DNA of 64,000 nucleotides, taken from assembly GCA_000004985.1 (NCBI GenBank), contig GG738905.1; one strand, 5' to 3'. Source of the stretch: Naegleria gruberi. Taxonomy: Eukaryota. The position numbers and the translations under genes are program-made. The stretch's first letter is position 1. Each line of letters opens with the position of its first letter. The notes under the pieces are model-generated. The model made no database searches. It saw only the letters and a program-made list of their open reading frames with translations, and was not told the origin of the DNA. Shown here one piece after another: positions 21,491-52,300 of this stretch.

Positions 21491-21708
21491 TCTTTGTGTG
21501 TCTATTTTTTGCTAAAGTTTCCATTCCGTGTTGCTTGTTTGAGAAACTCATCGCGTTTCATGTGTTTTATAAATAAGAATGGATCGCTCATGTTCATGTG
21601 TGTATTTTTACCGCCAAAAAAAACTACAATATGAACTTTGTTTTATTCCTTACCTCTGGGGTTGATGATGGGAATGTAAAATTATAATTTAATATAACAG
21701 TTAGTTTA

Positions 21709-27162: not shown

Positions 27163-30100
27163 TTATATTCTTCTTTCACTTTGTGAGTAAGTGTTGGCAT
27201 TTCTGTTACCACCATAATTGTTTTGTTGGGAAGCATAAGGACTTTGTCTAGCTTGGGAGTATGGGCTAGTAGATGGTTGTTGATTGGATGGTTGTTGATT
27301 GTTGTTGGCAGTAGTGGAATAAGGTGATTGTTGGGCAGCAACTGTGGCAGCGTATGGACTTTGGGAGTAAGGTGATTGTTGAGGAGTTGAGGAAGCATAA
27401 GGTGATGGGGCATACGGACTTGTTTGTGGTGTAGAACTGTATGGAGACTTTTGATAATTATTGTTAGAATTGGACGAGTATGGACTATTTTGATAATTTG
27501 GAGGATTAGTTCTTTGACCTCTATCATATGAATCATCTCTTCTTTGATACCTACTATCACCACCATAATTTCTATTTTCATTTCTATTATCATTTCTATT
27601 ATCATTTCTATCAGAATAGTTGCGATTATTATTTCTATCACCAGAATAGTCTCTGTTGTATCTGTTGTTATTATCATTTCGGTTATTATCATAGTTTCTG
27701 TCAGAATTATTTCTATATGAATTATTTCTGTCATCTCTATTGTCATTTCTTTGGTAATCCCTGTTATCATTACGTTGATAATTCGATCTGTCACCTCTGT
27801 CATAATTTCTATTATCTCTGTTATCATTACGTTGATAGTTATTGTCTCCTCTATTTCTATTGTGGAAGTTGCCACTTCTTGAAAAGTCTACACGTTCTCT
27901 ATTGTTATAGTCGTGTCTGCCTCCACCTCCATTTCTTCTAAAGCTCAAATAGTTATTTCTTGGTTTACCATTCATAATATTATCAATCATTTCTCTTGAA
28001 GAGCAGAAAGTGACAGTCTTTTCACCATTTTGTCCAATTACAACTGGAACACTGCCTGAATCCAAAATTGTTGGCAACATTCTTGGAGGAAGTGTTACAT
28101 TTGGTAATAATTTGGCAATATACTTGCACTTGGATTTTTCAACCAATGGGAAATCAAAACAAGCACTAACAGCTGCAGTCTCTGCAACATCATCTAATAA
28201 ATCAGCTTTCCATGGTACCTTAACCATATCTGAAGGTGCCACCGAGAGTGGATCTTGTCTGAATGTACCTGCAACATCTTTTGATGCCTTATTAAAGTCA
28301 ACAAAGGAACTATCATCCAAATAGCATGACATGATTGAATTTTGGAGTGGATGTTCAAAGTGAACATATAGAGTAGTATTGCCTAGAGTATTTCTTTCCT
28401 TTTCCTCACTTGACAATTTAGGTTCAACAGTCTTGATGGCTGCTTGTAATTCTTCTTGATCAATGAAAGGAAGTAAGCATACACCCATCCATGTCTTGGT
28501 CTTTCCATTCAAATCAATCTTGAAATCTGTAGGGTAATAGTTAATAATTGGACTATCATCAGACAACATCAATTCACGATAACATGGAGGAAGAGCATGA
28601 GAACTTCTTGGAGGTAAAACACCCAACAATTGAGAGAAAGGTTTGTAAGGTTGACCTTTCTTAAAATTGAGACCAAGTTTTGAACTATCAACCATGGCCA
28701 TATCAGAAGCAAACGGAGCAAAATGGTAAGGATAGAACCAATCCCAAGAATCACAACCAGTATAATAATATCTAAATACCCAAACCAAACCTTCCAAATA
28801 TTTCAAAGAAACATCCCAATATTCATCAGTTCCAATATTAATATCCATCTTGTCCTTGTAATATCTTTCCTTCCATCCCTGAGAACCCAATTTCACTGTA
28901 TCAGGGAATTTTTCGGTATCAACATTCTTTGCTTCATCAAGTCTTAATTTCAAGCTATCTTGATATTGTTTGGAATCCATTTTAGAGATGGAAGATGAGG
29001 CAGCACCTTCAACCGAAGTTGTGGCTGTAGATGATGGTTCGGATGGTTGTTCCTCAGTTTCTTTTAACTTTTTTTCAACAGGAGCTTCCTCTTCCAATTC
29101 TTCATTTTCCTCCTCATCCTTTTTTCTTTTACCTAGGAATGATTTTTCAGGTGTATTTTCCAATCCTTGCTTTTTTCTGAAATCTTCATATGGATTTGTA
29201 ATGTGACCAAACTTTCCACGATGTTCTTTCAAAATTGGAACAATTTCAACACCTTCAGGTTTGTATGATTGATCCTTTCTTTCCTTTTGTTCACGCTTAC
29301 GTTGTTCTTGTTGTTTTTTAAAGTATTCTTCTCTCTTTTCTCTGACAGAGAATATTTTATCTTCATACTCTGAAACTTGTTTGAGCAGATACTGGACACG
29401 TGAAACATTGACATCACCATTTTCTGTAAGATAACCACCCATAACAGGTAAACTCTCCTTGTACAATGCAAGTAACAAGTCAATTGCACCTTCTCTAATA
29501 TCCAAAGAAGGTAAATGAGGTAAGAAATCGTTACCAACAAAGAAGCAAATAAAGACAAAATCATCCAAGCCTCTCTCAAATTCATATTGGAACGGAAGAC
29601 GATCAGTTTCTTGTAGCAATTCAATTTCCAAATATTCTCTCAGTACACTAATGTGTAAAATTTCTAATGGCTTGTATTCATAGGGATGGGCACCACTATT
29701 CTTCTTTTCCACATCATAACCCTTTCCTCCAGAATTTTTACCAAAATTGACTTTTTCTCTTAGATTGTAAAAGTATGGTTCGTGTGTTGCAAGAGCAAGC
29801 ATTGTAAGATCAGCATCCAATCCATGGATAACATGACTAGTATTTGGATTATATCCTTTCATTTCTCTTTGGGATCTAATAAAATCCATAATTTTATGTT
29901 CTCCTTCACCTGGAACATTTGCATCACTTAAAATAATTTTGACCTTTTTCCATCCTTCATCAGTGGTCAACTTCATGTGAATGAAATATCTTAGAGCTTT
30001 TCCTAGACGATACATGAAAGGAGTACCAGGAGTAATCACGTTTGAATCCCAATTATCTCCTGCAGGGTGAATTTCAAAATATTCATCCTCTTCCTCCTCC

Positions 30101-30771
30101 TGATTATTATTACTATCTTCAAATTCTTCATTGAGTGGCATATCATTATCTTCCATTAATAAACTAGCTAATTCCTTATTCTTGAAAGAAGAAAGTTTTT
30201 TCTTTTTCAAAATTCTAATTGGTTTCTCTGCAATAGAATCAATCTTTTCTGGTGGTGGTTCTAATCCACGACTAATTAATTCCTCACGTAAATCTCTTTC
30301 AACTTTCTTTTGATCTTCCATATCTTTTGCAGATTTATAACGACGAGCACGTTGTTGATTTTGTTTGGCTCTCGGAGCAGGACCATCAACAGCCATGAAT
30401 AAAACTTTTCTTGGTCTGATGGCTGCATAAATTCTCTCTACATATTCAAAGATCTTTTCATACATTTCTTCTTCTGTTTTAGGTGCTTCTTCATCTTCTG
30501 GATGGCAACAAGGGTGAATAATACCATTCATATCCAAATATAAATTATCAAATTCTTTTCCGTTAGGATTTGGTTTGGTTGTATCAATTCCTTGGGTTAC
30601 AATTCTAACAGTCTTCTTTTTAATGGTTGGTAATTGTCCATCAGCAACCTCAAAATCATCATAATTTGATGAAATTGTTGTTTTTTGTACTGTAGGTATT
30701 TCTTCAACACATTCCGATACAATATTTGGATATTTCTCTGTTAAATATCTATATAATCCTGGTACACCCAT
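27163..30771 (-). CDS. 5'-3' exoribonuclease of the XRN family (Xrn2/Rat1-like), 1202 aa, with a long RG/YD/N-rich low-complexity C-terminal tail.
   Basis: It starts MGVPGLYRYLTEKYP, as in XRN MGVPKFFRWL. The acidic catalytic-core motifs are present: LYLDMNGIIHPC, MAVDGPAPRAKQNQQRARRYK, HGLDADLTMLALATHEPYF, CFFVGNDFLPHLPSLDIREGA. Single exon. Confidence 0.85.
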   Translation of the reverse strand: MGVPGLYRYLTEKYPNIVSECVEEIPTVQKTTISSNYDDFEVADGQLPTIKKKTVRIVTQGIDTTKPNPNGKEFDNLYLDMNGIIHPCCHPEDEEAPKTEEEMYEKIFEYVERIYAAIRPRKVLFMAVDGPAPRAKQNQQRARRYKSAKDMEDQKKVERDLREELISRGLEPPPEKIDSIAEKPIRILKKKKLSSFKNKELASLLMEDNDMPLNEEFEDSNNNQEEEEDEYFEIHPAGDNWDSNVITPGTPFMYRLGKALRYFIHMKLTTDEGWKKVKIILSDANVPGEGEHKIMDFIRSQREMKGYNPNTSHVIHGLDADLTMLALATHEPYFYNLREKVNFGKNSGGKGYDVEKKNSGAHPYEYKPLEILHISVLREYLEIELLQETDRLPFQYEFERGLDDFVFICFFVGNDFLPHLPSLDIREGAIDLLLALYKESLPVMGGYLTENGDVNVSRVQYLLKQVSEYEDKIFSVREKREEYFKKQQEQRKREQKERKDQSYKPEGVEIVPILKEHRGKFGHITNPYEDFRKKQGLENTPEKSFLGKRKKDEEENEELEEEAPVEKKLKETEEQPSEPSSTATTSVEGAASSSISKMDSKQYQDSLKLRLDEAKNVDTEKFPDTVKLGSQGWKERYYKDKMDINIGTDEYWDVSLKYLEGLVWVFRYYYTGCDSWDWFYPYHFAPFASDMAMVDSSKLGLNFKKGQPYKPFSQLLGVLPPRSSHALPPCYRELMLSDDSPIINYYPTDFKIDLNGKTKTWMGVCLLPFIDQEELQAAIKTVEPKLSSEEKERNTLGNTTLYVHFEHPLQNSIMSCYLDDSSFVDFNKASKDVAGTFRQDPLSVAPSDMVKVPWKADLLDDVAETAAVSACFDFPLVEKSKCKYIAKLLPNVTLPPRMLPTILDSGSVPVVIGQNGEKTVTFCSSREMIDNIMNGKPRNNYLSFRRNGGGGRHDYNNRERVDFSRSGNFHNRNRGDNNYQRNDNRDNRNYDRGDRSNYQRNDNRDYQRNDNRDDRNNSYRNNSDRNYDNNRNDNNNRYNRDYSGDRNNNRNYSDRNDNRNDNRNENRNYGGDSRYQRRDDSYDRGQRTNPPNYQNSPYSSNSNNNYQKSPYSSTPQTSPYAPSPYASSTPQQSPYSQSPYAATVAAQQSPYSTTANNNQQPSNQQPSTSPYSQARQSPYASQQNNYGGNRNANTYSQSERRI

Positions 30772-30905: not shown

Positions 30906-33900
30906 TCAAATTCTTAGCATGTTGAAAACTTCCTTCTTGAGGGAATCTAATAGGATTGGTTTGTAAATGACAGAGTCAAAACCATGACCCACTAGAGTAT
31001 CAACACTTTCCCAAGTATTGGCTGTAATGGCTAAAATTGGTGTTTGTTTTTCAGTTTCGTTTTGTTTCTCTGCTTTACGAATCATTTCACATGCTTCCTT
31101 ACCTGAAAGAATTGGCATGAAACAATCCAACAAGATAATGTCGTACTTCTTTCGTTTGTACATGTTGAAACATTCCATTCCATCACAGGCTACATCAATA
31201 TCTTTAAATCCAATAACTCTTAGCATTTTGGTGAGGATTTTCCTATTAACTGCATTATCATCTACAACAAATATTGATTTCTTACTAATGTCAGGTCGAA
31301 TAGGACTGGATGGGTGGTGAGATTCTGATCTTTCACTTGTTGGAGAGGCTGTTTCTACTCCCAAGAATGTTGGCATGCTGCCTACTTCAACAATTGATTG
31401 TCTTGGGGTACAACTGGCTTTCTTGCAATGTGCATTGTGCGGTTTCTCTTTCAACACCAAATCAGCCAAATCAACAAACTTGATCGGTTTGGTCAGGTAT
31501 GAGAAAGTTTGATGATGTCTTGTTTCTCCTCTGAATATTGAAGGAATTATCATGCAATTCAATTGTTCCACAAATCTAGTGCCTTGAATTTGAGTACAGA
31601 ACGATTCTGGGCAGAAAATCATATATTTACAGGAATGATCTGCAACATGGAGAATATTTTCAGATTCTTGAACAAAATCTGCATGAGTTTCAAAATCTTG
31701 AATAAGCACAACTCGTTTGAACAAGTTCAAATAGGAAGACAGTACTTGTCTAAAAACTGGATCCTCATCAATAATGATAATACTCAAATCTTGTGATTGA
31801 TCTTCACTTAGAACGTCCAATAAATTTTCTGGATTCAAATTAATGTGAGTTGAGGAAGAAGAGCCTTCAGAATCTGTAACTTGCTCTTGTTTGTCCATTT
31901 CTTCGAGAGGGATATAGACGTTCATTGTTGTTCCTTCTCCTACTCTTGAGTTGACAATAATCTTTCCTTCCATTTTCTCAATAATTTGCTTAGTAATATT
32001 CAATCCAAGTCCATTTCTATTGGTATTGATGAGACTACTTCCTCCATTGTTCAATTTTGTAAATTCTGATTGTTTAAAGTAGTGCTCGAATCCTTGGGTC
32101 TTTTCTTGTTTTTCTATAATGTGGAATGGTTTGAATAAACTTCCAATTTGAGACTCTGAGATACCACATCCATTATCTTGACATTCAATCTTGAGATAGA
32201 AGCAATTCTTCTTAATTTCCTCTTCTTGGAAGTGTAGTTTCAATTCCTCATCCTTTGCCTTTTTACATTTGAGCAGGACTTGACCTCCCTTAGTATACTT
32301 GATCGAATTTGAAACCAAATTCATTACAATTTGACTGATCCTCACAGAATCTCCCATTAAAAACATTGGTACTTTGGAAACATCAAAGAATGAATGTAAA
32401 GTATTCTTCTTTTCAATTGCTAATGGAGAAAATACACAAGTTATGGATTCTATCAAACACATGACATTAAATTGTTCCACCTTCAGTTTGATATTTCCAA
32501 TTTCCATTGAACTCATTTGAAGAGAAGAGGATAGGATGTGTAATAAGAGTGCCGCATTTTCATGAACATCATTAATCATTTCTGAGAAGGAAGCGTTTGA
32601 AACCATGCAATGTTTACAACTCTCTGAACAATCTTCACTCTTATAAATATTCTTAATTAATTCTACGGAACCAATAATGGCATGAAGTGGATTTCTCAAT
32701 TCATGAGATAGTGATGCAATAAATCTCGTCTTTTCATAATTTGAAACTCTTTCCTTTGCAATTTCTACTTGATGACTAGTGTACTGATTATTTTTCTCTG
32801 TCAAGTGTTTGGAGAAGAAGAAAGATCCGATTAATACTGTATTCTGAATTACAAACACTTCCAACACTTTAACATAAAAGTCTGCTCTTTCCTTCTCACT
32901 CAGTAAATCGTACCACATGTAAAAAGAAGTAAGTAAGGAAATGGTGGTGAAAGCAATCAATTGCCCACATCCAAATAATATATAACTAGACTTGTAATAA
33001 AACGACATGGACACTACAAAAATCTTAAATGTTGTAATGATATGCATAGGACTTAATGGTCCATACTTGATTTGCATTGCAATTTGTACAAAATCAGCAA
33101 GAGATATTCTCGATAAGTTAATCATGGAAAAGGCATGTAAGGTTGTAACCTTATCTAATATAATGTTCACGCCCATATGTATAAAATGTTCCACAACTAG
33201 TACTATAACGAAGAATAACGGTCCTATATCCCATGATGCTATTGCTCCAAATATAATTGGCATGATGGCCAGATAGGACCCGACTGTTGAGTGGCAACTT
33301 TGTTGTTGTTTCACTTGTTGTAAATCTACTTCGTCTTTGATCGCTGCTGATGAATTAGCACTCCCTGCTGTGGAAGATGAAGGAGATGGAGGAACTGAAT
33401 TGTTATTGGTGGTGGTAGATGAAGAATTATTAGTTGGACTATTTGAAGAGTATTTGGCCTTAATAGAAGAGGATGGCGATTCGGGGGCCATCTCTTCCTG
33501 GTTTGGCATTCTCTTCACCACAATATTGCCATTACTTGTTTGATGGTCTAATTTTCGGAAATTCTTACTTTTCATTATTGAGGCACTCATTGGTGATGAG
33601 AAATTCATATTATTTCTTATGCTATTGATGGTGCCTGATCTTCTATCCTTCTTTAATTGTTGTTGAGTGGCCACAGTGTCAAATTTGTCTTGAAGAAGTG
33701 AAGGAGGAGTTAAGGAAGGTGAAGATGTACTCGTTGTTTGTGGGGAAGAGGATGATGAGAGAAATTCATCATCTATTGCTTCCATAGTTGGTGTTGTTGC
33801 TGCATTAAAAGTGTTGTTATTATCATCTTCATCTTTATGAGGGACGGAAATTCGGATGGGAGAATTAGGTTTATAGTGATGAGAATTGTTGTTCGTTCTC

Positions 33901-34040
33901 ACTGAACCTTCTTGTTCATTATTGAAACGATCATCACCACCAATTGATGTTGTTGTTATTATATTGGAACTATTTGATTTGAAATTGGATATCAAAGATG
34001 TTGTCATGACTATGATGGCCGTGGAAGTTATCTTTTTCAA
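30906..34040 (-). CDS. Hybrid sensor histidine kinase of 1044 aa. The N-terminal region is S/T-rich and possibly extracellular or disordered, followed by TM segments, HisKA, HATPase_c and a C-terminal receiver domain.
   Basis: H-box ASLSHELRNPLHAIIGSVE. N/G boxes QIVMNLVSNSIKYT and DNGCGIS...GLGLNITKQIIEKMEG. Receiver IFVVDDNAVNRKILTKMLR...DIILLDCFMPILSGKEACEMIRK. Confidence 0.85.
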   Translation of the reverse strand: MKKITSTAIIVMTTSLISNFKSNSSNIITTTSIGGDDRFNNEQEGSVRTNNNSHHYKPNSPIRISVPHKDEDDNNNTFNAATTPTMEAIDDEFLSSSSSPQTTSTSSPSLTPPSLLQDKFDTVATQQQLKKDRRSGTINSIRNNMNFSSPMSASIMKSKNFRKLDHQTSNGNIVVKRMPNQEEMAPESPSSSIKAKYSSNSPTNNSSSTTTNNNSVPPSPSSSTAGSANSSAAIKDEVDLQQVKQQQSCHSTVGSYLAIMPIIFGAIASWDIGPLFFVIVLVVEHFIHMGVNIILDKVTTLHAFSMINLSRISLADFVQIAMQIKYGPLSPMHIITTFKIFVVSMSFYYKSSYILFGCGQLIAFTTISLLTSFYMWYDLLSEKERADFYVKVLEVFVIQNTVLIGSFFFSKHLTEKNNQYTSHQVEIAKERVSNYEKTRFIASLSHELRNPLHAIIGSVELIKNIYKSEDCSESCKHCMVSNASFSEMINDVHENAALLLHILSSSLQMSSMEIGNIKLKVEQFNVMCLIESITCVFSPLAIEKKNTLHSFFDVSKVPMFLMGDSVRISQIVMNLVSNSIKYTKGGQVLLKCKKAKDEELKLHFQEEEIKKNCFYLKIECQDNGCGISESQIGSLFKPFHIIEKQEKTQGFEHYFKQSEFTKLNNGGSSLINTNRNGLGLNITKQIIEKMEGKIIVNSRVGEGTTMNVYIPLEEMDKQEQVTDSEGSSSSTHINLNPENLLDVLSEDQSQDLSIIIIDEDPVFRQVLSSYLNLFKRVVLIQDFETHADFVQESENILHVADHSCKYMIFCPESFCTQIQGTRFVEQLNCMIIPSIFRGETRHHQTFSYLTKPIKFVDLADLVLKEKPHNAHCKKASCTPRQSIVEVGSMPTFLGVETASPTSERSESHHPSSPIRPDISKKSIFVVDDNAVNRKILTKMLRVIGFKDIDVACDGMECFNMYKRKKYDIILLDCFMPILSGKEACEMIRKAEKQNETEKQTPILAITANTWESVDTLVGHGFDSVIYKPILLDSLKKEVFNMLRI

Positions 34041-35999: not shown

Positions 36000-38900
36000 A
36001 TGACAGCTTCAACCACAGTGTTAATATGCCTGTTGTCTTACTTGTTTCTTTCCTTCTTCTTTACTTATAACTATGCAGCCGATCAAATTTACTATTCGAA
36101 TCGTCCAACTTCACAAATGACGAAACCTTTCGTATATCAATTAGCAAGTGGTGCACCTGTTGCCCTCTCGATCAAATATTTCGATAACACAGGTGATTAC
36201 GACAATGTATACCACTTCATCCCTGACAATCCCTCAGCAAAATCCAACTTTACAATGCGTTTCTATGTTGATGGATTTTCGAATATTGCTTGGAGTGCTT
36301 TATTGACTAGTTTGGTATCTGGATGGAATTCAGTGTCGAAATGTGGAGTTTTAGTCAAGTCAAGCTTGTCTAGCTCTAGAGAATCGACCACTTCACAAAA
36401 TTCCACATTCTTTAATACACCTCTTTCCATTTCGAATAGTGATAAGTTTAATTGTGTGGTTTCGGCTAATTTTGCAAAAGCTGGATTGTTTGAAGTGTTG
36501 GTTACTCCAAAATCTAATTATGAAGAGGGTGTTTATTTATTTGAATATACTCCTGTGGCTGGTTTAACAGCTGATCAATCTTTATTTCAGGCAGAATTGG
36601 TCGTCTATTCGAAAACCACCTTTACGAAACTTGTTGGAAATCCGGTGGTTGATCCAAACAGTTTATTGGAAATTCAGGTAGCTCAACCAAGTATAATTGA
36701 TCCAACTAATCCACCAAATCTCGATAACGAAACTTCCACTTCTTACATTCCATTGAGAGATAACTTTGGAATGAATGCTATTGTTTCTTCTGCAGTTTCT
36801 AATAAGATGAATTTGATTTATACATGGCAAGTTATGAGAGTTTACAAATTGAACACTGCCATAATTGATGTCATGCCAAAAACTAACTATCTCGGTAAAT
36901 CCAATACTCTCCAAGCCATGTATCAACAAAACAGTTTAGGATACTCCTCTCTCGTTTTATCTCAAGATAAAATACTCTATGCTGATACAGCTTACAAGGT
37001 AGTGGCCTCAGTTTACTCCTCCTCTAAGACTCTCATTGCTAGAAAGATCAAATACTTGAGAACGCCACTCGATTTCTCTCCAGTCTTGTCAACTGTTGGA
37101 ACTGTTTCACCAACCATTGTCAATTTCACTGATCCACTCACTTTCAAAGTAACCTCTAATTTCAAATATAGCGACAATTCAGATGCCACTAATTTACAAT
37201 TTGCATTTGGTTATTTGGATACTTCCCTAATTAAGAGTTCTGATGTCATGAGCTTTAGTAATTTGGACAATGTTCCTTACTCGACCATTATGCAAGGATT
37301 TGTGAGGGTGACTGATTATTCCACTTCCAAAATTATTTCTTCCTACCTTCCACCAAGTTATGCTTTGGGAGAAAATCAAAAATCTTGGAAGACTCTTTTG
37401 TTTGTGAAGGATTTAAGTTTTGGAAATGTGAAAACTTATGCTTTGAATGGAGTTATTGTGAAACCAGTGGCTCTCGAGGAGATTTATCGATTTGTATTAC
37501 CTTCAGCATTTATGAGTGTTTCCATTCCACAATTGAAAGGAGTAGTTGGCTTCACAAGAAAATCCTATCAAAGCACTGCCAATTCAACACTGATTGACTT
37601 GGTTCAAAGACGTTTATTTGCTGTCATTCAGAACAAGTTGGCAACCATGACTGAAAATGATACTGACAAGTTGGCAGATCTTGCTAGAATTCTCGATATT
37701 TGGGCATACAATGCAAAGAAAACTATGGCGAATATGGTAAACACAGATGGAGATGCTATTTTCACACTCTTGTACAATTTCATTTCCATGATTAAGAAAG
37801 ATGCCAATCAAAACAAGTACACTGGTGATGTCACTTCCAAACTTCCACTTGGAATGAAGGATGGTACTGTTTTGGATATACTGACCTCTCTGTTGTCTAG
37901 TTGGATGAAAGTTTCTCAATTCAAATCGAAAACTGCATCACTTGTGAAAATGCTTTCGACTAGTATTGTTGATAGTATTTCACCAAGTGAAGAAAGAAGA
38001 TATTCAACTGATTCTATTGTATTTTCTATTAGAAAGGATTATGCTTCTAATTTTAATGGAACTACTTTAACAACTGATTCTTCATATCATTCAGTTGTCA
38101 TGCCAACTGTTTCAGTATTCAATTCAACGAAAGGTCTGTATGGAACTGAATTTGTAACCTATTTGGAAAATCCAAACAATTCCACATCATCCAGTGGTGG
38201 AAACATTACCAGTGATGTAATTTCCTTGAGATGTATCAATCCATCAGGTGATTACTTCCCTCTTAGCGAATTGACTGATCCAATTGTTTTGAATTTCAAC
38301 TTGTCCATAGCCAACATTTCAAATCCAGATTTATTGGTCTGTAAATATTGGAATGAAACTGTCAGTGATTGGTTGTCCAATGGTTGTACAAGAACTGCCC
38401 TTCTCACATACGGTGATTACTATGTAGTTGAGTGTTCCTGTGATCACACCACTCAATTTGCAACATTTGTTGAGTTTCCAACTTCAACTACCAATTTAAC
38501 TTTAGCACAAAAGCAAGCTTACTACATTTTATGGGGATTTGATATTGGAATTGGTGTCATATTTGTGATTGTGAGCTTGATAATGTTATTACTGATTTGT
38601 ATCTTTAGAAATTCACAACCTGTCAAGGCCAAGTACATTGCTCCATTTGTGGGAATGACAAGTATCTTTTTAGAATCATTGTTGAGCTATGTTGTTAAGT
38701 CATCGCTCATGATTGGTTTCACAGCAACCAACTCGACCAATATTTCATTCTATTTGAATACTATTACATATTGTTCTGCTGTTATTATTAGTGTGGCTTT
38801 CGCAGAAACAGGAGAAGATTTGGCTTCTACAGATCATTTCCTCAAAGAGTTTGTACGTTTTCCTTGTGGTATGCTTGCCCTTGGTTATCTTTACCTATTT

Positions 38901-40026
38901 CACAGGATTTTCCATTGGAAGAATTGTTCAAGAATCACTCAATTCAGACACCTCTAAGCAAATTTTCACTTCTTCCATCTATACCATAGTTACCTCGAGT
39001 TTTATGGGTGCAATTCTTCTATTCTCACTTGTTGCAGTTTCCTTAATATTCATAGTTGACTTGATTTATGCCTTTGCTGTTGAATATAGAAAACCATACA
39101 TTGATACATCAGAGATTTCAGGAACTCTTGTGGAAATGAGTGAATCTCAAAGCTCTTCTGCATTCAGCACTGATTCGAATAGCAATTCCAAGAAGAAATT
39201 CAAAGATTTGGAAAGCTTTAAAAAGGCAAAGGATATTACCATGTCTTCCATGTACAAATTCTTTGTCCAAGATGATCCTTTATTCTTCCGTTGTGAGAGT
39301 TTGCTTTTCATTTTCTGTTTGGGAGTGTTATTGATCTCGTATGTGTTTGGAATTGTTGGATTAGGTTTCTTTACACTCACTGGAAAGGCATTGAGTACAA
39401 GTGAAAGCGCATTCGAAACTTCACTCGTTATGGATATCATCAGATTAGTTCTTTCAGTTGTGTACTTTGTCTTGTACATTCTGGTCTTTGGAGATTTGTC
39501 ACTTTTGATTTACATTTTCAAATATAGAAAGTACAGAGTTTCGTCCACTTCAGGTTCCACAAGTTTTTCATCTGAATCTCGATACGACAATGAATTACAA
39601 GAAATTCTGAATGACGGCTTAGCTTATTCCTTATTCGAAAAGTTCACAGTCAAGGAATTCTCAAAGGAAAACCTCCTCTGTTACAATTCCCTACAAGAAC
39701 TCGAAGATGAAAAACAATTTTATCAAAAAGATTTGGAAAATCAAGTGAAAATGTTGGAAGAAATCATTGAAAAATATTTAACACAAACTAGTTCATTTGA
39801 AGTTAACATTCCTTCGAACACAAGAAAGAATCTCATTAATTTGATTAAATCAAAGGAAGGTCTTACAAAGGAAAATGTAAAAAAGTCGCTGGAATCTTTG
39901 AAATCTGATATTCTGGTCAACTTGACTGATACCTTCTCAAGATTTACTACTTCTCAAAGTTATGAATTTTGGACGCAAATCAAGGAAGAAAAGGAAAGAT
40001 TGATGGCAAGAAATAAAATGGTTTAA
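36000..40026 (+). CDS. Large receptor combining an extracellular region of about 790 aa, a GPS/GAIN-type autoproteolysis motif, a 7-TM domain and a C-terminal RGS domain. The frame changes from 0 to +1 near 38800..38915 through an unresolved short intron or indel.
   Basis: Signal/anchor MTASTTVLICLLSYLFLSFFF. GPS motif LVCKYWNETVSDWLSNGCTRTALLTYGDYYVVECSCDHTTQFATFVEF, ending just before TM1 (YILWGFDIGIGVIFVIVSLIMLLL). Several TM helices continue in ORF 38791..40026. RGS signature LAYSLFEKFTVKEFSKENLLCYNSLQELEDEKQF...SQSYEFW. Confidence 0.65.
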
Positions 40027-40226: not shown

Positions 40227-41351
40227 TTAATGCTTTCTAGGAAATGCAAATAAATATTGAGGAGGAACTGCCACTTGATATTCCAATTCATGAGCAGCTC
40301 TAATTGGCCAATAAGGATCATTCAATTCCTGTCTTCCAATTAAAACCAAATCCGCCTTTTGATCCTTAATTAAATCATTAGCAAATTGAGCATCCTTAAT
40401 TTTACCGACAGCGCCAGTTGCCAATCCATCAACTGATTTCTTGACACCTTCAGAGAATGGAACTTGATAACCTTGAACAATGGAAGTTGGGGAAAGTAAT
40501 TTGGCATTTGCATTGTTGCCACCTGAAGAACAATCCAACAAGTCAACTCCACATTTTTGTAAAATTTTGGCTAGCTCTGTAGTATCTTTCATGGTCCATC
40601 CTTCATCACCAACATATTCATCTGCTGAAATTCTCACAAATAAAGGCATTTCACTTGGAATATTCGCTCTAATTCTTTCAACTAATTCAACCAAGAATCG
40701 AATACGATTTTCGAAACATCCACCATATTCATCACTTCTCTTATTCGAAGTTTGTGAAAGAAATGAAGAAATTAAATAACCATGAGCTCCATGAATCTCA
40801 ATTAAATCAAATCCTGCCTTAATAGCTCTCTTTGCAGCATCCACAAATTGCTGAATCACCTCTTGAATTTCCACAATGGTCAACTCTGCTGGAATTCTAT
40901 GATGTTCATCGAATGCAATTGGAGATGGACCTACAACATCCCATCCTCCTTGTTCATTTGTGAGTGCTTTTCTACTATTCGCTTCCCAAAGTCTTCCTGT
41001 TGATGCCTTTCGTCCGGCATGATTCAATTGTAAACCGATATGACCTCCTTGTTCATGGGCAAATTGAACAATTTTTGACAACATGTCAACATGTTCATCT
41101 TTGTAAATTCCCAAGCAGCCTGGAGAAATTCTACCAACATCTGAAACACCAGTTGCTTCTACGATAAATAAACCTGCTCCACCGACAATTCTACTGCCAA
41201 TATGTTGGACATGCCAGAAATTAGCAAATCCATCAGTTGCTGAGTACTGACACATTGGAGAAACGACAATTCGATTCTTTAATGTTAAGCCTCTAACGGT
41301 GAATGGTTGGAAAAGTGGTGGAATGGAAAGTTCTTGTTGTTGTGTGGACAT
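40227..41351 (-). CDS. Old Yellow Enzyme-family NADH:flavin oxidoreductase (YqjM/NamA-like), 374 aa, single exon.
   Basis: PLFQPFTVRGLTLKNRIVVSPMCQYSA, HVQHIGSRIVGGAGLFIVEATGV, GLQLNHAGRKAS, GFDLIEIHGAHGYLISSFLS. Confidence 0.85.
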   Translation of the reverse strand: MSTQQQELSIPPLFQPFTVRGLTLKNRIVVSPMCQYSATDGFANFWHVQHIGSRIVGGAGLFIVEATGVSDVGRISPGCLGIYKDEHVDMLSKIVQFAHEQGGHIGLQLNHAGRKASTGRLWEANSRKALTNEQGGWDVVGPSPIAFDEHHRIPAELTIVEIQEVIQQFVDAAKRAIKAGFDLIEIHGAHGYLISSFLSQTSNKRSDEYGGCFENRIRFLVELVERIRANIPSEMPLFVRISADEYVGDEGWTMKDTTELAKILQKCGVDLLDCSSGGNNANAKLLSPTSIVQGYQVPFSEGVKKSVDGLATGAVGKIKDAQFANDLIKDQKADLVLIGRQELNDPYWPIRAAHELEYQVAVPPQYLFAFPRKH

Positions 41352-41857: not shown

Positions 41858-43882
41858 ATGAAAGCACCCAGCATTCGTCTACTTCTCACACTCTCCCTGG
41901 TCGGCCTCTTCTTCATCATTATTACTTTCGGATTATTTTCAAAACGTAAAGGAAATGACATTTCCGAGTCAATTACAACTGGACGTGTGGCATTAGATAA
42001 AATTGACAGCAAATCCAGCACTTCAAAACCTGCACCACCTCCACCTCCTCCTCCTCCTACCTATTGTGTATCCAATGATGTTCTTTACTTTGGTCAACTC
42101 ACACATAATGGAAATTTGAACGGACAAATGAAACGAATGTATGAAGCAGTTCATCCGAGAAGCAAGGAACCATTCTTGAAAAAGGAAAATACATTTTTCT
42201 TTACGGATATCGAACCATCTCCTTCCCATGTCTCATTCTTTTCCAGAATTACTTTAATGGCATCAAAAGGAGGGAAGGTTGGATATGATGGAGCTCAGAG
42301 ACGTTTTCTCGAGTCAATTTTTACAATGTTAGAGTTGAAGAAGGAGAGGAATGATAAACGAGTGAGATGGTTCATGTTGAGTGATGATGACCATATGAGT
42401 ATTCCTGCTAATTTGATGCGTACATTGGCAAAATATGAATTGAAATTGGAAAGAGGTGAATTGAGTGTGGATGAGCCATTAATTATTGGAAGAACACCTG
42501 AATGTAGAGCTGTTAGTGGAGGAGCTGGTGTCATCTTTAATGAAAAGGCCATTGAAGTGCTCAAGGTTAATATGGAAGAATGTATTAAGAAAGTTGGTTT
42601 ACAATGGTATGATTATACCATTTACAGATGTGTGAATGATGTTCTCACAAAGACAAAGGAGGAAAAGTGCAAGATTTTGAAACATGAAACTTCCATGCAT
42701 TGTTGTAATTACATGTATTTCTGTGATCCTTCAAGTTTTAAGGATCCACCAAATTTGAGCTGGTTCAATAGATTTAGAAAGGCAACTGGATTCCATTACC
42801 TTCAAGGAGATCACGTCAATAGGATGAAGGAGAATTTACCAGATAGTTTCTTTACAAAGATTGATAAATGCTTCCCAGTATCAGAGTTAGAGAAGGAACT
42901 TGATGGATACATGCCAAGTGTTTCATCTTCAAATAAGAATTTACGTGAAATTTTACAACAAGTTGAAAGTATGCCAGTAGTGAGGCCACCTTCACTCGAT
43001 TGGATAAAGAGTGAATCGAAACAGCAAGATGAGAGTGTTGTCTCTTTCATGACAGGTTTGATTGAAATAATCTTTAGCAATTGGGAAAATCAATTCGCAA
43101 GCAATAGAAAACCAATAGATCAAACTCTGGAGAGAAAGGACATTGCCATTGCTGTTATTCCAAGTCCCCTCATTGAATCTAGAGCTTCACTCATTGCTAG
43201 AGAATATAACATCTCATCCCAAGTTGAACTCTCTCTCAATTATTGGCAACAATCTGGATTTAATGCTCATGTATGTGAATCCACACACACTTCAAAGATT
43301 TCTCTCTATGCAGAGTGTCTGAAAAAGTCATCAACATCCTCCAAATGGACCCTAGTTGTCTCCGAATCAACAAGAATTAATTCAGATTCCCTCCTTCAAT
43401 ATTTGAAAACTTTCAGCAATTCTGCAAAGCTTTACATTGGTGGAATGCGATCAGCTCAAGAATTAATCCTATCACAATTGGAAGGAAAATCTATTGGACT
43501 TCCATTTGGAGCTCTCTTTGCTGTTAGCTCTCCATTCATTGAGGAATATTTATCCATCGCCACTACTTCTTCTACCTTGAAGGAAAGCATCATTCAGGAA
43601 CAAATCAACGATCGTCTTCTCATTCCAAATACTGGAATGATTCTGAGTGGTGGTCACTTTTTCACTCATGCACCAGAACACTACTGCACAAAAGGAATTA
43701 CAAATGTAGAGTCGTGGATTGAAATGCAAGTTCCAACCAAAGAATTGGAACCAATGACTGTGACCTTCTCTCCAACTAATAATTGTCTTGGAAGAATGAA
43801 TTCGATTAATCAATTTTTCAATAAGATTGATAAGAGTTTGCTTGGATCACCTACTGGCATTAACCATAATTGTTTTGAATAA
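41858..43882 (+). CDS. Type-II-anchored Fringe-like (GT31-like, DxD-type) glycosyltransferase, 674 aa.
   Basis: N-terminal TM LLLTLSLVGLFFIIITFGLF, proline tract PPPPPPPP, DDD motif in WFMLSDDDHMSIPANL. Family assignment is tentative. Confidence 0.5.
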   Translation: MKAPSIRLLLTLSLVGLFFIIITFGLFSKRKGNDISESITTGRVALDKIDSKSSTSKPAPPPPPPPPTYCVSNDVLYFGQLTHNGNLNGQMKRMYEAVHPRSKEPFLKKENTFFFTDIEPSPSHVSFFSRITLMASKGGKVGYDGAQRRFLESIFTMLELKKERNDKRVRWFMLSDDDHMSIPANLMRTLAKYELKLERGELSVDEPLIIGRTPECRAVSGGAGVIFNEKAIEVLKVNMEECIKKVGLQWYDYTIYRCVNDVLTKTKEEKCKILKHETSMHCCNYMYFCDPSSFKDPPNLSWFNRFRKATGFHYLQGDHVNRMKENLPDSFFTKIDKCFPVSELEKELDGYMPSVSSSNKNLREILQQVESMPVVRPPSLDWIKSESKQQDESVVSFMTGLIEIIFSNWENQFASNRKPIDQTLERKDIAIAVIPSPLIESRASLIAREYNISSQVELSLNYWQQSGFNAHVCESTHTSKISLYAECLKKSSTSSKWTLVVSESTRINSDSLLQYLKTFSNSAKLYIGGMRSAQELILSQLEGKSIGLPFGALFAVSSPFIEEYLSIATTSSTLKESIIQEQINDRLLIPNTGMILSGGHFFTHAPEHYCTKGITNVESWIEMQVPTKELEPMTVTFSPTNNCLGRMNSINQFFNKIDKSLLGSPTGINHNCFE

Positions 43883-45747: not shown

Positions 45748-47583
45748 TTATAAATTAATCTTGAAAACCTCAATTTCCTTAACTTTGAAATTATTTCTTG
45801 TTCCACCATGTAAATAATTTCCAGCTTGTTGACTTCCTTCCACAATTCCCTCAGGCAATTCGAAAGATCCTCCAAGATTCGAATAAGAATAATCACCTGT
45901 AGCACTCTCATTGCAAATATACAAATCACAAGGAAATCCATACGAAACTGAATAAATATCTCTCATGAGTACTGAATTACTTTGTTTTCCATTTTGAAGT
46001 TTTAACACTTTCAATTCTAGTTGACCATTTACATCAATTACCTTAAAAAGGAAGACAGATTCATCTGGAAAGTAGGTTGCATTTTCTGGTGATTGCCAAC
46101 TAACAGATGTGTAGCCTCCAAATATATTACCATGTTCAGATTTGATTAGTGACAGAGTTGGACCTTTGTTGTCACATTTTTCATGGAAGTTTTTCGCACT
46201 AAATCCATCTCTGGTAGCTCTATAAAGAAGTTCGATAGTTGGCTTGCTTTTTGTGAGAGAAATGAGATTTCTGATTAGGTTTTTGTCTGTAATTAGTTTC
46301 GAATTGATATGTTCGAAACTAGATGAATCATATTCGCAACCATTCCAATTGCATTGATCAAAGAATGTATTAATAAATGAAAATCTAATCAAATTTTGAT
46401 TGGAAAGGTCAATATTTTGGAAACGAATGTCCTTAATTTCTCTCGTTTCGAATAATGAAAAATCAATAAGGCAAGAATCGAATATATTTCCTTCATAAGG
46501 TGATAAATCTCTCAATGAATTTCTAAAATCAATTCTCTTGAATGTGCATTGTTGAAATTTGGCTTTGAGATTGAAATCCATTTCTTCAAATACTGATTGG
46601 TTGAATTGACAATTGACAGCTTCAAAACCAGGCACATGAAGCTTCTTGAAATGAGTTCCTTTGATGATACAGTTTGATAACTTTGAATTAGTTAAATTAC
46701 TTTCCCAAATAATTGCCTTTGTCAAGTCAACTGAGTCAAAATCAATATTTTCCAAATTAGAATTTGACAAGTTACAGCATGAGAGATCACTGTTCGGTAA
46801 TATTGCTCTTTTAAATGAAGAACGAGTAATACTTGAGTGGGCTAAAGTAGTTCTTGTCAAATCACAACCTTCAAAATTACATTCTACCAAGCAGCAATTT
46901 TTCAAAGTGGCATTTGACATGTTGCAACCACTAAAAACACTTCCTTTCAAATTGGATCTATCTAAAACAATACCACGTAAATCCATTCCACTAAAATTAC
47001 AATTAGTAAATGTGCAATCTGTCAAATTAGCTTTTGCCAATTTTAGCTTTCTCATGTCATAACTGTTTAACCAAACTTTATGCTGAGTTGATTGCATCAT
47101 TTGGATGAATTCTTTCATGGTAATTGGATTGTAATTGTGTGATTCCTGTTTTAGTAATTTTGAAAAGTTGAACATTTGACAGGTGCAGAGAAATTCCTGT
47201 TTGATGTCACTTGTGATTTCACCAACAATTTTAAACTTTAACCAATTGTAAAGTAATTTGAAAATCTTCGGATCACAATCTATGAAAATTGGTTGATTGG
47301 CATTTGACAGTTGACCAGAAATTATTTTACCAAATTCATTGGCTGGTTCTATTGGATTGTTAATAAAAGTGGTTACGGAAACAGTAAAGAGAGTTCCGCC
47401 AACATTCAGAGTAATTGGATCACTCATATGGTTTCCAATACCTTTAGTTTGATTAGTTTCATAATATTCTACTCTTTCATAATTAGTCAATGATTTACTT
47501 TGATCAACAAAATTTTGATTAGTATTGTTTGGTTCTTTCATTTTTTTGAAACTTGTTTTTTGAAATTGATCTCTACAATTCAT
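45748..47583 (-). CDS. BTB/T1 (KCTD-like) protein with pentapeptide repeats and a C-terminal TLDc domain, 611 aa.
   Basis: BTB/T1 ITLNVGGTLFTVSVTTF...KIFKLLYNWLKFK. Pentapeptide repeats LTDCTFTNCNFSGMDLRGIVLDRSNLKGSVFSGCNMSNATLKNCCLVECNFEGCDL. TLDc-like region TLSLIKSEHGNIFGGYTSVSW...FLFKV. The BTB-pentapeptide layout resembles KCTD9. Confidence 0.65.
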   Translation of the reverse strand: MNCRDQFQKTSFKKMKEPNNTNQNFVDQSKSLTNYERVEYYETNQTKGIGNHMSDPITLNVGGTLFTVSVTTFINNPIEPANEFGKIISGQLSNANQPIFIDCDPKIFKLLYNWLKFKIVGEITSDIKQEFLCTCQMFNFSKLLKQESHNYNPITMKEFIQMMQSTQHKVWLNSYDMRKLKLAKANLTDCTFTNCNFSGMDLRGIVLDRSNLKGSVFSGCNMSNATLKNCCLVECNFEGCDLTRTTLAHSSITRSSFKRAILPNSDLSCCNLSNSNLENIDFDSVDLTKAIIWESNLTNSKLSNCIIKGTHFKKLHVPGFEAVNCQFNQSVFEEMDFNLKAKFQQCTFKRIDFRNSLRDLSPYEGNIFDSCLIDFSLFETREIKDIRFQNIDLSNQNLIRFSFINTFFDQCNWNGCEYDSSSFEHINSKLITDKNLIRNLISLTKSKPTIELLYRATRDGFSAKNFHEKCDNKGPTLSLIKSEHGNIFGGYTSVSWQSPENATYFPDESVFLFKVIDVNGQLELKVLKLQNGKQSNSVLMRDIYSVSYGFPCDLYICNESATGDYSYSNLGGSFELPEGIVEGSQQAGNYLHGGTRNNFKVKEIEVFKINL

Positions 47584-49335: not shown

Positions 49336-52300
49336 TTAGAATCGATTAGATGAGGTAATTAGTAATTCCAAAGCTTCAACCCAATCACTACGATCTTCTT
49401 CTGAGGCAGCATTGAAAACAAATGTTCTATTGAGGGTTGATAATTTAAAGCAATTAGCCCTTCCGGCTTCCTTTTCAATTTCAGGTGCCATTTGAATACG
49501 TGTTCCTCTGAGTGCAACACTCTTAATTGGTTTTGGATCTCCTTGATTCTTATAATAGGAAAGCTGGTATTGGTTTGCTTTACCACCTTCGAGTGGTTCA
49601 AGTGCCATGAAACGCTTCTTCCACGATTTGAATCCACCACCTTGTTTAATCAAGTAACCATTCTTGTTCTTTGCCTTTTCAAATTTCAAATCTGATGAAC
49701 CACCACTACTGAGAATTGATTCACTTCTCGATTTGTTTGATGAAATGGAACCAATAGCAGATCCTCTCACACTCGTCTTTACAACAGCAGATCTGCCAGT
49801 GGTGGTTGAGGATGAAGCTGAACTACCACCCGACTTTTCTGAACCCATGAGTGGATTAATTGTAACTGTAAATTCAGGTTCATAATCAACATCGTCAGAC
49901 ACAGATGAAGTTATTGATGAATTAGCAGTAGAAGATGAGGTAGTCATTGGATTTGAAGCAACAACAGTTGTACGGAGACGAACTGTGGCACGTTTCTTTT
50001 GGGTTGTTTTGGTTTCATCATCATTTGAAGAGTGGGAAGTGAACATTCCACGAGACTTGTTTGGAGAACTCAATTGAATATCATCTTCATAGTAATCAGT
50101 GGATTCCTCTGAGAATGATGAAGTACTTCCTCTACTGATGTTGTTGGTATTACTATTATTGGTGTCATTATTAGATGTGGCACTTGTTGGAGGAGGAGAG
50201 GTCATAATGATGGAACCACTTGTACCAATAACACGGGAATTAGTAGGAGTGGAAGGTGATGGTGATTGGTTGTTTGAAGCTTGTTGTGGAGTTGTGTTTG
50301 GAGTGGCAGCTTCAGTTGGTGGTTTTACAACAACAGTTCTCCTCACTACACGAACAATCTTCTTTGGTGCACCAGTTCCATTTTCATCAGTTTCACCACT
50401 AATGGATGGACGAGGTTGTGAATTTTCAGGTGGAAGAGCAACATGTTTTGGTTCTGAAAGTCTTGGTTGTTGTTGTTCTGGTTCAGTTGGTTTGACTTTC
50501 TCTGGTTCTTTCTGTACAACAACTGGTTTGGCTTTTGCAAGTTCTTCCTTTTCCTTCTCGAGGGTTGCAACTTTTTGCTCTTGTTCAAGTTTTTCACGCA
50601 TGACACTTTGAAGTTGTTTCTTTAATTCTTCAACTTCAGAGGTGAGCTCAGAAACAGTAGAATTCAAGACATAAACTTGCTCTTCAGTTTGTTTGATTGA
50701 TTTTTGGCTATCCTTTTCCAATTTTTCATATTTTGATTTGTATTGAGAAAGTTCCTTCTCCAACTTTTTAGCATGATCATTGGCAGAGTCAAACTTGCCT
50801 TCCAATTCAGCTTTGGAGACTTCAAATTCATCCTCCTTGTCTCTCAATTGTTGCTCCAAATCATTGATGGTGTTTTGCTTTTCTTCCATTTGATCTGAAA
50901 TTTCCATAATTTCATTTTGTAAGGTGAGCTTTTCTTGCTTTTGTTTCTTGACTGCTTCCTCCAAATCTTGTTGATACTTCTTTTGGAGTTCTTCAATTGT
51001 TACATTCTTTTGGTTTTCAATTTCAGAAATCTTTCTTTCTTGTTGCTTGATTTGTTGACAGTGCTTTTCATTAATTTCCTTGATCTTTTCATTGGTTTCA
51101 ATTTCGAATTGAGTTTCAACACGTTTACGCTCATCTTCAACAGCCTTATTCTTTTCCAATTCTAAGGAGCTCTTTGTTTGTTGGATAAGAATTTGGGATT
51201 TTTGTCGTTCTTCCTTCAAGGAAATGTCCAATTCCTCAGCCTTGGTCTTGGCTTCACTCCATTCATTTTTGATAGCAGCAATTTCACTCTCCTTGTCTTC
51301 AATCTTCTTTTCGGCTTGAGACGTTTTTTCTGCTTGTTCAGAGACAAGTTTTTTCACTTGAGAAACTTCCAATTCGTGAGCAGATTTCAAAGTTTGTTCA
51401 AGAGTTTCCAATTCCTTCTTGTGTGAAACTTTGAGTTGGTTGGTGGTTTCAACTTGAACTTCCAAATCTGATTTGACAGAACTCAATTCCTGTTGGGTTG
51501 ATTGAAGACTTGCCTTGGTTGTTGCTACCAGTTCCTTCTCATTTTGGAGATCCTTCTTGATTTGATCACGTTCTTCAACCAATTTTTGGTATTGACTCTC
51601 CTTCTCAGAGATGATAGAATTCAATGATTCAATCTTGGTTTGAAGTTCCTTACGTTCTACATTGAATGATTCGACACTAGAGAGATTTGAAGTAACCATT
51701 GAGTTCTTATCTGATAATTCCTGCTCCAATTTACTCTTTGTAGTTTCGAGAGCAGTAACCTTTTCTTCGTAGGTTGTTTTGATGGTTTCCAATTCTGACT
51801 TGGATTCTCTCAATTTCTTTTCAGCGGCCTCAAGATCTTGAGTTAACTTGTCAATCTTTCCTTGAGCATTGGATTTTTCTTCAGACATATTCTTGTTAAA
51901 CTCATCTTGCAACAATTGAACTTGTTGTTGGTGTTGTTTTTGTTGGGAGATTTTTTCACTTTCAAAAGTCTTTTCCAATTTTTCTTTTGACTTTTCGGCA
52001 GCTTCCAAACTGGCAACAGCCTGTTCATGCTTTTGCTTCCATTCTAAGAGTTCTGCAGTTTCAGTGGCGAGCTTACCCTTGATTGTTTCAAGTTCTTCAG
52101 AAATGGATTCCTTCTCCTTACCAATCTTTTCCAAATTGTGTTGTAAGCTGGCAATTTCTTGTTGGAGCTGATTCTTTTGTTTAAGTTTTTCATCTTCCAA
52201 TTGAGTGACTGTTTCTGAAAGTTCCTTGATTCTTTGCAAGTTTGTGTTATTTTGACTGTCGAGAGCTGTTGATGATTCAACATTCTTTTCTTGCAAGTTA

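Follow-up and report, generated by a model that had tools for sequence, protein, structure and literature searches.

A probable disruption in a GAIN/GPS-bearing seven-transmembrane RGS gene of Naegleria gruberi

Does the receptor locus at 36000..40026, on the plus strand of a stretch of Naegleria gruberi nuclear DNA, encode an intact protein? The window, meaning the whole stretch of 64,000 nucleotides (nt) that we analyzed, is AT rich (33 to 37% G+C), and the locus holds the parts of a large ectodomain, a GPS motif, a seven-transmembrane (7TM) bundle, and a C-terminal RGS box. A preliminary description, drawn from the letters of the DNA, had taken these parts as one receptor gene. Every part that it listed was found where it had been placed, and the coordinates of its two open reading frames (ORFs) proved correct; however, the parts occupy two frames that no credible intron joins, and the 7TM region is short by about 32 codons. 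We propose, with a probability of about 0.72, that the locus is an N. gruberi paralogue of a heterolobosean family of GAIN/GPS-bearing 7TM-RGS proteins and that the assembled copy is disrupted and cannot make an intact receptor.

The public protein P0001 ("predicted protein [Naegleria gruberi]," 1325 amino acids [aa]) is 99% identical to the locus when the 1341-aa composite of ORF1 and ORF2 is used as the query, and its precomputed Pfam domains are GPS and RGS. ORF2 has no ATG upstream of transmembrane helix 5 (TM5); the GTG given as its start is a bacterial-code artifact of the ORF finder. The frames and the lesion between them are as follows.

36000..38957, plus strand: ORF1, frame 0, 985 aa
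38791..40026, plus strand: ORF2, frame 1, 411 aa
38802..38836, plus strand: lesion, a net 95-nt deletion with a shift from frame 0 into frame 1, for which 38811 is the best position
38955..38957, plus strand: stop codon of ORF1, frame 0, at which translation of an unspliced mRNA would end
40024..40026, plus strand: frame-1 stop codon

The preliminary description had proposed a search for orthologues in related genomes. A phmmer search with the frame-1 translation against 1.84 billion representative sequences returned 304 relatives at an E value of 1e-3 or below, the best being an "RGS domain-containing protein" of N. lovaniensis (E=8e-118, 56% identity), with Willaertia at 1.6e-46. When the N. 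lovaniensis orthologue was aligned to the window by tblastn, its segment LNTITYVSSIIVSVAFCVT fell on 38754..38810 in frame 0 and the segment beginning KKISFYRWISSKKLYV fell on 38812..38934 in frame 1, while the 32 intervening residues, VLTFVIQVVRYQLMRRMYAFMSDENLDDQHVD, had no match anywhere in the window. Alignment of the DNA gave 282 nt in the orthologue against 187 nt in the window, a difference of 95 nt, or 2 modulo 3. The orthologue is encoded from TM1 to the RGS box by one uninterrupted exon (L001 6266..8626). The simple intron at 38800..38915 that had been expected is not what we found: relative to the orthologue, the junction is a deletion with a frameshift and not a splice site.

The same gap appeared in the multiple alignment, and the phmmer relatives align to frame 1 from nt ~38800 to 38812 onward; the tail of ORF1 from ~38811 to its stop has no family homology. 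The interval between the TM3 Asn and the TSK motif is 29 aa in the window, compared with 55 to 86 aa (median, 59) in 57 relatives. An RY motif is present in all 57 of these, in 52 as [QEN]xxR[YFH] and in 5 as xxRY, and is absent from the window copy. The lost segment corresponds to the C-terminal half of TM3 and intracellular loop 2 (ICL2), including the conserved [QEN]xxR[YF] motif. The window copy accordingly differs from the family in two respects: it has no seven complete helices in one frame, and it lacks both the [QEN]xxR[YF] motif where TM3 meets the cytoplasm and an ICL2 of normal length. The membrane segments on the two sides of the lesion are placed as follows.

38520..38606, plus strand: TM1, aa 841-869 (hydropathy, 3.35; model helix, 835-868)
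38634..38720, plus strand: TM2, aa 879-907 (model helix, 881-909; aligned with family TM2)
38742..38801, plus strand: N-terminal half of TM3, aa 915-934, ISFYLNTITYCSAVIISVAF, shorter than in all relatives (tblastn and family alignment)
38812..38850, plus strand: ICL2 remnant in frame 1, EKIWLLQIISSKS, which aligns with the family motif K..L[KR]..TSK
38851..38919, plus strand: TM4 in frame 1, LYVFLVVCLPLVIFTYFTGFSIG (hydropathy, 2.26; aligned with TM4 of 17 displayed relatives)
38977..39075, plus strand: TM5 (hydropathy, 2.83; family alignment)
39076..39297, plus strand: ICL3, 74 aa with 11 K/R, ending in DPLFFR
39298..39372, plus strand: TM6 (hydropathy, 2.79)
39424..39519, plus strand: TM7, followed by basic KYRKYR (hydropathy, 2.47)

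Under the proposed reading, the lesion at ~38802..38836 would shift TM4 to TM7 and the RGS box into another frame, and a ribosome starting at the ATG at 36000 would terminate at 38957, leaving a fragment of ectodomain, GAIN domain, and TM1 to TM3 that lacks TM4 to TM7 and the RGS box. One real deletion at the junction is probably the cause, because the frameshift falls at the very spot where a conserved motif is missing. Since the downstream frame of 411 codons is still fully open, the lesion should be either very recent (a null allele or a young pseudogene) or unreal (an assembly or haplotype artifact); from base composition in a 34% G+C genome, we estimate the chance of such a frame staying open under neutrality at ~1e-13. 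A recently disrupted copy or allele is most likely, and the locus may thus be a pseudogene.

The rival that survives best holds that the gene is intact in the organism, that the 95-nt loss and frameshift reflect an assembly or consensus error or a single haplotype, and that the product is a receptor of ~1370 aa, like that of N. lovaniensis, acting as a GTPase-activating protein (GAP). The frames on both sides of the lesion are open over 2.9 kb and 1.2 kb, the diagnostic residues of the GPS, TM4 to TM7, and the RGS box are all kept, and there is no other frameshift or stop relative to the orthologue across aa 112-1340. Nevertheless, we consider this reading unlikely. A loss of 95 nt is atypical for a consensus error, motif loss and frameshift at one spot are explained most simply by one real deletion, neither the protein look-ups nor the metagenome scan recovered an alternative N. 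gruberi sequence, and the public model needed an invented intron, which implies that the annotators' data held the same sequence.

Several observations do count against a real disruption. The breakpoint is uncertain within 38802..38836: a single event of 95 nt would fit, and so would the in-frame loss of ~72 to 96 nt combined with a small indel that shifts the frame. Open flanking frames of such length (985 and 411 codons at 34% G+C) would be exceptional except in a very young pseudogene, and they fit an assembly or haplotype artifact equally well. No independent N. gruberi DNA or RNA confirming the deletion came from exact-protein look-ups of P0001, ORF1, and ORF2 or from 26-mer scanning of metagenome contigs, and protein-index searches gave no further N. 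gruberi copy (the composite query retrieved P0001 alone, a 12-sequence profile returned only P0002 and P0003 and missed even P0001, and a TM1-to-TM5 query returned nothing). Were only the frameshift an error, a shortened but functional receptor is conceivable.

What would the intact protein have been? An AlphaFold model was built on the frame-0 product of the window with a 29-sequence alignment (mean predicted local distance difference test [pLDDT] score, 63), and the following features were assigned upstream of TM1.

37473..37976, plus strand: GAIN subdomain A, helical, aa 492-659 (AlphaFold helices and Foldseek)
37989..38474, plus strand: GAIN subdomain B, a beta sandwich with the GPS, aa 664-825 (pLDDT, 70-90; Foldseek)
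38337..38462, plus strand: GPS motif, aa 780-821, CKYWNETVSDWLSNGCTRTALLTYGDYYVVECSCDHTTQFATF (Pfam PF01825)
38448..38450 and 38451..38453, plus strand: T817 and T818, the predicted autoproteolysis site (GPS pattern)

The region has the GAIN fold, with a helical subdomain A and a beta-sandwich subdomain B that contains the GPS. Foldseek matched the window model to the GAIN domains of BAI3 (4dlo_B; E=7.4e-11), BAI2 (8oek; 8.1e-11), and latrophilin-1 (4dlq; 1.2e-8), and further to those of ADGRL3, GPR126, CD97, and GPR56, with the matches to BAI3, BAI2, CL1, ADGRL3, and GPR126 spanning 7e-11 to 5e-8. The Pfam GPS profile (PF01825) scored 27.5 bits on ORF1 aa 780-821 (cutoff, 22.5; E=4.7e-6). The motif ends ~20 residues before TM1, which upholds its claimed position directly ahead of the first helix.

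That motif had also been called canonical, and the description holds for its Cys/Trp/His/Thr pattern (C-x2-W-x6-W-x4-C-x15-C-x-C-x-H-T|T-x-F) but not for the residue before the cleavage site. Whereas the cleavage consensus of adhesion G-protein-coupled receptors (GPCRs) is H-L|T/S, position -1 is Thr, not Leu, throughout this family (H-T|T), with His at -2 and Thr at +1 invariant. The sequence CSCDHTTQF (aa 812-820) fits the family motif C.C.H[TA][TS].F directly upstream of TM1, and C781, W791, G795, C796, C812, C814, H816, T817, T818, F820, and F823 are invariant in 29 family members. Directly after the cleavage site lies TQFATFVEF, which resembles the Stachel consensus TxFAxLM, and a family profile aligns the GPS, the following strand, and TM1 to ADGRL3 (4.9e-7), ADGRD1, ADGRF1, ADGRG2, and ADGRG6. 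These patterns suggest that intact members may undergo autoproteolysis at H-T|T and that TQFATFVEF may act as a Stachel.

The presence of multiple TM helices had been noted previously, and hydropathy and topology give seven hydrophobic helices once frame 1 is read from ~38848; however, TM1 to TM3 lie in frame 0 and TM4 to TM7 in frame 1, and TM3 is shortened. ICL1 is basic (RNSQPVKAK after TM1), as are ICL3, with its 11 K/R, and the tail, which begins KYRKYR, while extracellular loop 1 has two N-glycosylation sequons; in the DPLxFR motif at the end of ICL3, the D, F, and R are invariant in the family alignments. The positive-inside rule is obeyed only with TM4 retained, and TM4 is needed for an N-out/C-in topology. 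The preliminary description had suggested the 7tm_2 model, and here its expectation failed: no Pfam 7TM family, 7tm_2 included, matched the window protein or any of the 12 relatives scanned, and there was thus no match to a secretin/adhesion-type 7TM domain. Comparison of the bundle with known receptors gave figures of 18.9 for GABA-B2, 18.2 for GPR156, 17.5 for Smoothened, 17.4 for GPR158, 17.3 for CB2, 16.8 for FZD4, 16.3 for PTH2R, and 15.9 for the 7TM domain of ADGRL3. The modeled 7TM region is a GPCR-fold bundle, but not demonstrably one of class B2.

At the C terminus of ORF2 lies the following feature.

39595..39966, plus strand: RGS box, ORF2 aa 269-392 (Pfam PF00615)

The predicted RGS signature, FEKFTVKEFSKENLLCYNSLQ, falls inside this box, which scored 36.5 bits against the Pfam RGS profile (PF00615; cutoff, 23.9; E=6.9e-9). 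Compared alone with solved structures, the window box matched RGS6 (3.7e-5) and RGS10 (7e-5), EFSKEN, EVN, and DTFSRF lining up with the G-alpha-contact motifs of both. The residues E, E, N, N, D, T, and R are invariant across the family, and the motif residues presumably correspond to S85/E87/N88, N128, and D163/R167 of RGS4. The C-terminal part of the family profile had RGS10 (1.3e-14), RGS17, and RGS4 among its matches; the orthologue model showed seven helices followed by an RGS domain that, against RGS1, RGS8, RGS16, and RGS9, gave TM-scores of 0.65 to 0.80 on the target. The profile searches by which the preliminary description could have failed thus placed both GPS and RGS above their cutoffs, with the GAIN domain supported by Foldseek on the window model, and by their scores both profile matches are far beyond chance.

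The N-terminal part of the locus comprises the following.

36000..36077, plus strand: start codon (first ATG of ORF1) and putative signal peptide, aa 1-26, MTASTTVLICLLSYLFLSFFFTYNYA
36078..36941, plus strand: N-terminal ectodomain, aa 27-314, with no Pfam match and mostly low pLDDT
36942..37469, plus strand: beta-sandwich region, FN3/REJ-like, aa 315-490 (AlphaFold strands; pLDDT, 60-90)

The proposed signal peptide was recovered, by eye and by hydropathy, as a hydrophobic N terminus (MTASTTVLICLLSYLFLSFFFTYNYA, then AD) with a peak of 2.0 at aa 3-21, and cleavage may occur after aa 26. The large extracellular region ahead of the GPS is likewise real; it extends as far as the cleavage site predicted at 817/818, and 14 N-glycosylation sequons lie within it. 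AlphaFold pLDDT was below 50 at aa 16-219, 230-246, and 283-312, and aa 112-454 could be aligned to the N. lovaniensis orthologue alone (34% identity). By Foldseek, the region at aa 315-490 resembles beta-sandwich arrays of the FnIII and macroglobulin types. BLASTP linked the ectodomain weakly (E=0.03) to the REJ-positive part of paralogue P0017; Pfam found no REJ match in the window protein at an E value of 1 or below, and we set the REJ assignment aside, that single match being kept as a lead. Pfam also found no EGF or lectin match in this ectodomain.

How unusual is such a protein? The preliminary description had called the fusion of a GPS ectodomain to a 7TM-RGS protein uncommon. The fusion itself was read correctly: intact relatives carry GPS/GAIN, 7TM, and RGS in one polypeptide and in the order proposed. 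The rarity was not: 57 of the best 150 phmmer matches have the C.C.H[TA][TS].F motif before a 7TM region and an RGS box, making this a large paralogous family in Naegleria and Willaertia, and Pfam GPS and RGS were both positive in all 12 members scanned. The named members come from N. gruberi, N. lovaniensis, and Willaertia magna, and the remainder are metagenome or Logan contigs. Paralogue ectodomains carry REJ (Pfam, 61.9 bits in P0005 and 28.4 bits in P0017), PKD, EGF, and B-lectin modules. The N. lovaniensis orthologue is apparently split into two gene models, at 4640..5965 and 6001..8629 of L001 (PYSW02000020.1); the upstream model, of 441 aa, aligns to aa 112-454 of the window protein, while P0002, of 860 aa, begins within the GAIN region. 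The real N. lovaniensis product probably has ~1300 aa or more.

The GAIN-7TM-RGS architecture is already known in the genus. N. fowleri has 28 7TM-RGS proteins, "a number" of which bear a GPS and EGF/lectin ectodomains and are "reminiscent of the adhesion GPCRs"; in Nf 7TM RGS2 to RGS4, the RGS box was shown to act as a GAP for Nf G-alpha 2, 3, 5, and 7, including self-activating subunits (Bosch et al. 2022, J Biol Chem, PMC9283941). More broadly, 7TM-RGS architectures occur in many bikonts (De Mendoza et al. 2014, PMC3971589). N. fowleri 7TM RGS1 to RGS4 share with the window protein the genus, the conserved RGS contact residues, and the module order (complex ectodomain, GPS, seven helices, C-terminal RGS), and their EGF/lectin modules recur in its paralogues. 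In contrast, the window copy lacks 32 codons of TM3/ICL2, is frameshifted, and has a REJ/FN3-like beta region with no EGF or lectin match.

To metazoan adhesion GPCRs (ADGRB2/3, ADGRL1/3, ADGRE5/CD97, and ADGRG1), the locus is linked by the GAIN fold (Foldseek down to 7e-11), the GPS Cys/Trp pattern, His-x-Thr at the cleavage site, and the Stachel-like TxFAxF before TM1; it differs in that its 7TM region is not recognizably of the secretin/adhesion type, position -1 is Thr and not Leu, an RGS box replaces the tail, and there is no HormR domain. REJ upstream of GAIN/GPS, as found in paralogues P0005 and P0017 and matched only weakly in the window, recalls polycystin-1/PKDREJ, from which the window protein departs in having no Pfam PLAT or PKD_channel match, seven helices and not eleven, and an RGS box at its end. 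AtRGS1 and the Trichomonas 7TM-RGS proteins share the arrangement of seven helices followed by a cytoplasmic RGS box, a likeness drawn from architecture and from the literature. AtRGS1 has a short N terminus, without GAIN/GPS or a large ectodomain.

In an intact member, the signal peptide precedes a variable adhesive ectodomain (REJ/FN3-like, PKD, EGF, or lectin), which is followed by a GAIN domain, the 7TM bundle, and a cytoplasmic RGS box. The GPS of the GAIN domain (H-T|T) would be positioned for autoproteolysis, leaving the Stachel-like strand. An extracellular or mechanical cue, or engagement or shedding of the ectodomain, might alter the 7TM conformation and so the access of the RGS box to GTP-bound G-alpha; the box would accelerate GTP hydrolysis on G-alpha, and the protein would be a receptor-GAP. 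Receptor regulation of GTP hydrolysis on a self-activating G-alpha is the logic proposed for the AtRGS1 and Trichomonas 7TM-RGS proteins (PMC9283941; PMC3971589), and by analogy the family may combine that logic with an adhesion-GPCR-type sensor, a ligand then controlling GAP activity. The GAP activity of the family RGS box is suggested by that of the N. fowleri paralogues (PMC9283941) and, here, by conservation of the contact residues.

Alternatively, as the preliminary description had suggested, the receptor could be self-terminating: on exposure of the tethered agonist, the 7TM bundle would act as a guanine nucleotide exchange factor (GEF), and its own RGS box would then shut off the same G-alpha. 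The 7TM region does have a genuine GPCR fold, with the GAIN domain and a Stachel-like TxFAxF strand ahead of it, and a conserved family RY motif closes TM3 on its cytoplasmic side, the position at which class A receptors have their E/DRY switch. Slow-exchanging N. fowleri G-alpha subunits, which would need a GEF, also bind 7TM-RGS boxes (PMC9283941). Yet the published paradigm in AtRGS1, Trichomonas, and N. fowleri is GAP regulation of self-activating G-alpha (PMC9283941), the 7TM region is not demonstrably of class B2, and the window copy has lost exactly the TM3-ICL2 segment that a GEF would need. We judge this reading improbable. To our knowledge, moreover, GEF activity has been shown for no 7TM-RGS protein, which also counts against it.

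It is a little more doubtful still that the frameshift alone is an assembly error and that a loss of 30 to 32 codons is real and in frame. The locus would then encode a natural variant of a GAIN/Stachel-gated receptor-GAP without the TM3 "RY" switch and most of ICL2, Heterolobosea having fused an adhesion-type GAIN module to a non-class-B GPCR-fold bundle and an RGS box. If true, the receptor would be a mechanosensitive "off-switch" whose evolution was independent of that of metazoan adhesion GPCRs.

Could splicing instead rescue the locus? The public model assumes as much, with the following feature.

38857..38905, plus strand: 49-nt "intron" of P0001, GTTTTC...CACAG, rejected as an annotation artifact

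This is the sole GT-AG pair that reproduces the P0001 sequence, in which ...DHFLKEFVR is followed by FSIGRIVQ. The borders are GT-AG, splicing restores one long ORF of 1325 aa, and the annotation is a deposited one. However, we reject the intron because it excises SLYVFLVVCLPLVIFTYFTG, which in frame 1 matches TM4 of the orthologue and of the 17 displayed relatives residue for residue. The protein that results has six helices, and its K/R-rich ICL3 would lie on the extracellular side together with the KYRKYR tail and the RGS box. The donor GTTTTC is nonconsensus and the intron body is 41% G+C by count, compared with a GTAAGT donor and an AT-rich body in a candidate intron elsewhere in the window; the frame-0 stretch AETGEDLASTDHFLKEFVR that the model retains has no clear family counterpart, and the orthologue has no intron anywhere from TM1 to RGS. 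That the public model is right is scarcely credible, and its intron is an artifact that restores the frame by deleting a conserved TM4.

We enumerated every GT/GC-AG intron joining frame 0 to frame 1 without a stop codon. None of the 135 combinations keeps TM3 and TM4 with a plausible length and signals, and all were rejected because the orthologue has no intron in the region; further helices are lost with the 40- and 52-nt candidates that end at 38832 and with the 76- and 130-nt candidates that end at 38791. A +1 ribosomal frameshift at the ORF1 stop (CTC TAA G) was also rejected, as it would retain the nonhomologous frame-0 tail and not the conserved TM4. The candidate intron elsewhere in the window lies on the minus strand (53942..53889; GTAAGT...AACAG), is 54 nt long and very AT rich, contains a stop codon, was recognized from ORF continuity alone, and joins the ORFs at 53920..54639 and 49336..53910, which encode a coiled-coil and PH protein.

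A functional split or truncated locus, in which ORF1 encodes a secreted or anchored GAIN-3TM decoy or adhesion protein or ORF2 a separate 4TM-RGS protein, has in its favor that both ORFs are intact and that the window also holds membrane-anchored RGS genes with few helices, such as the 2TM-RGS gene at 56137..57645, but it is highly improbable given the missing ATG before TM5 in ORF2, the lack of promoter or transcript support, and the lack of any split-architecture member among the family sequences examined.

No paralogue of the receptor locus was found elsewhere within the 64-kb window. A second membrane-anchored RGS gene, 16 kb from it, is the ORF at 56137..57645 on the minus strand (502 aa), which has TM helices at aa 101-119 and 271-289 flanking a loop of ~150 aa and then an RGS-like box beginning FKEFCKIERSEENF that scores 21.3 bits, just below the Pfam RGS cutoff of 23.9. 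Two genes upstream of the receptor lies a hybrid histidine kinase (30906..34040, minus strand; HisKA, HATPase_c, and receiver), and downstream is a BTB, pentapeptide-repeat, TLDc protein (45748..47583, minus strand); other neighbors are an XRN exonuclease (27163..30771), an OYE flavin oxidoreductase (40227..41351), and a Fringe-like glycosyltransferase (41858..43882). Farther away, at 8789..12754 on the plus strand, a 1321-aa ORF, overlapping an ORF at 10482..11852, has a CCHC zinc knuckle at aa 346-361 and, at its C terminus, a tyrosine recombinase (Phage_integrase, 37 bits, with a SAM-like N-domain); the region has a G+C fraction of 0.40, compared with ~0.33, and looks like a tyrosine-recombinase mobile element, DIRS/Ngaro-like or Crypton-like. 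At 17974..22938 on the minus strand are tandem paralogous ORFs, five by reading of the translations, each by eye seemingly with a C2-like N-terminal part (...FEV[FY]DYDR...GTLT[IV]ELLAEDFG); in three of them, the C terminus is a long low-complexity tail rich in P/Q/G/Y, with QGYPQQ repeats, and the array coincides with a strong positive GC skew at 18 to 24 kb.

What is new here is the junction lesion and the corrected reading of a mismodeled locus, the architecture and a GPS- and RGS-annotated protein being already public. P0001 hides a deletion and a frameshift in the 7TM core behind an invented intron, with a topologically impossible six-helix protein as the result, and in counts of N. gruberi 7TM-RGS genes or in cloning the locus should be treated as disrupted. 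For the family, GAIN, GPS, and Stachel of the adhesion-GPCR type stand beside a 7TM bundle that cannot be assigned to class B and that has the family's own RY motif at the end of TM3. This comparison sharpens the question of whether these proteins are pure receptor-GAPs or may also be G-protein activators.

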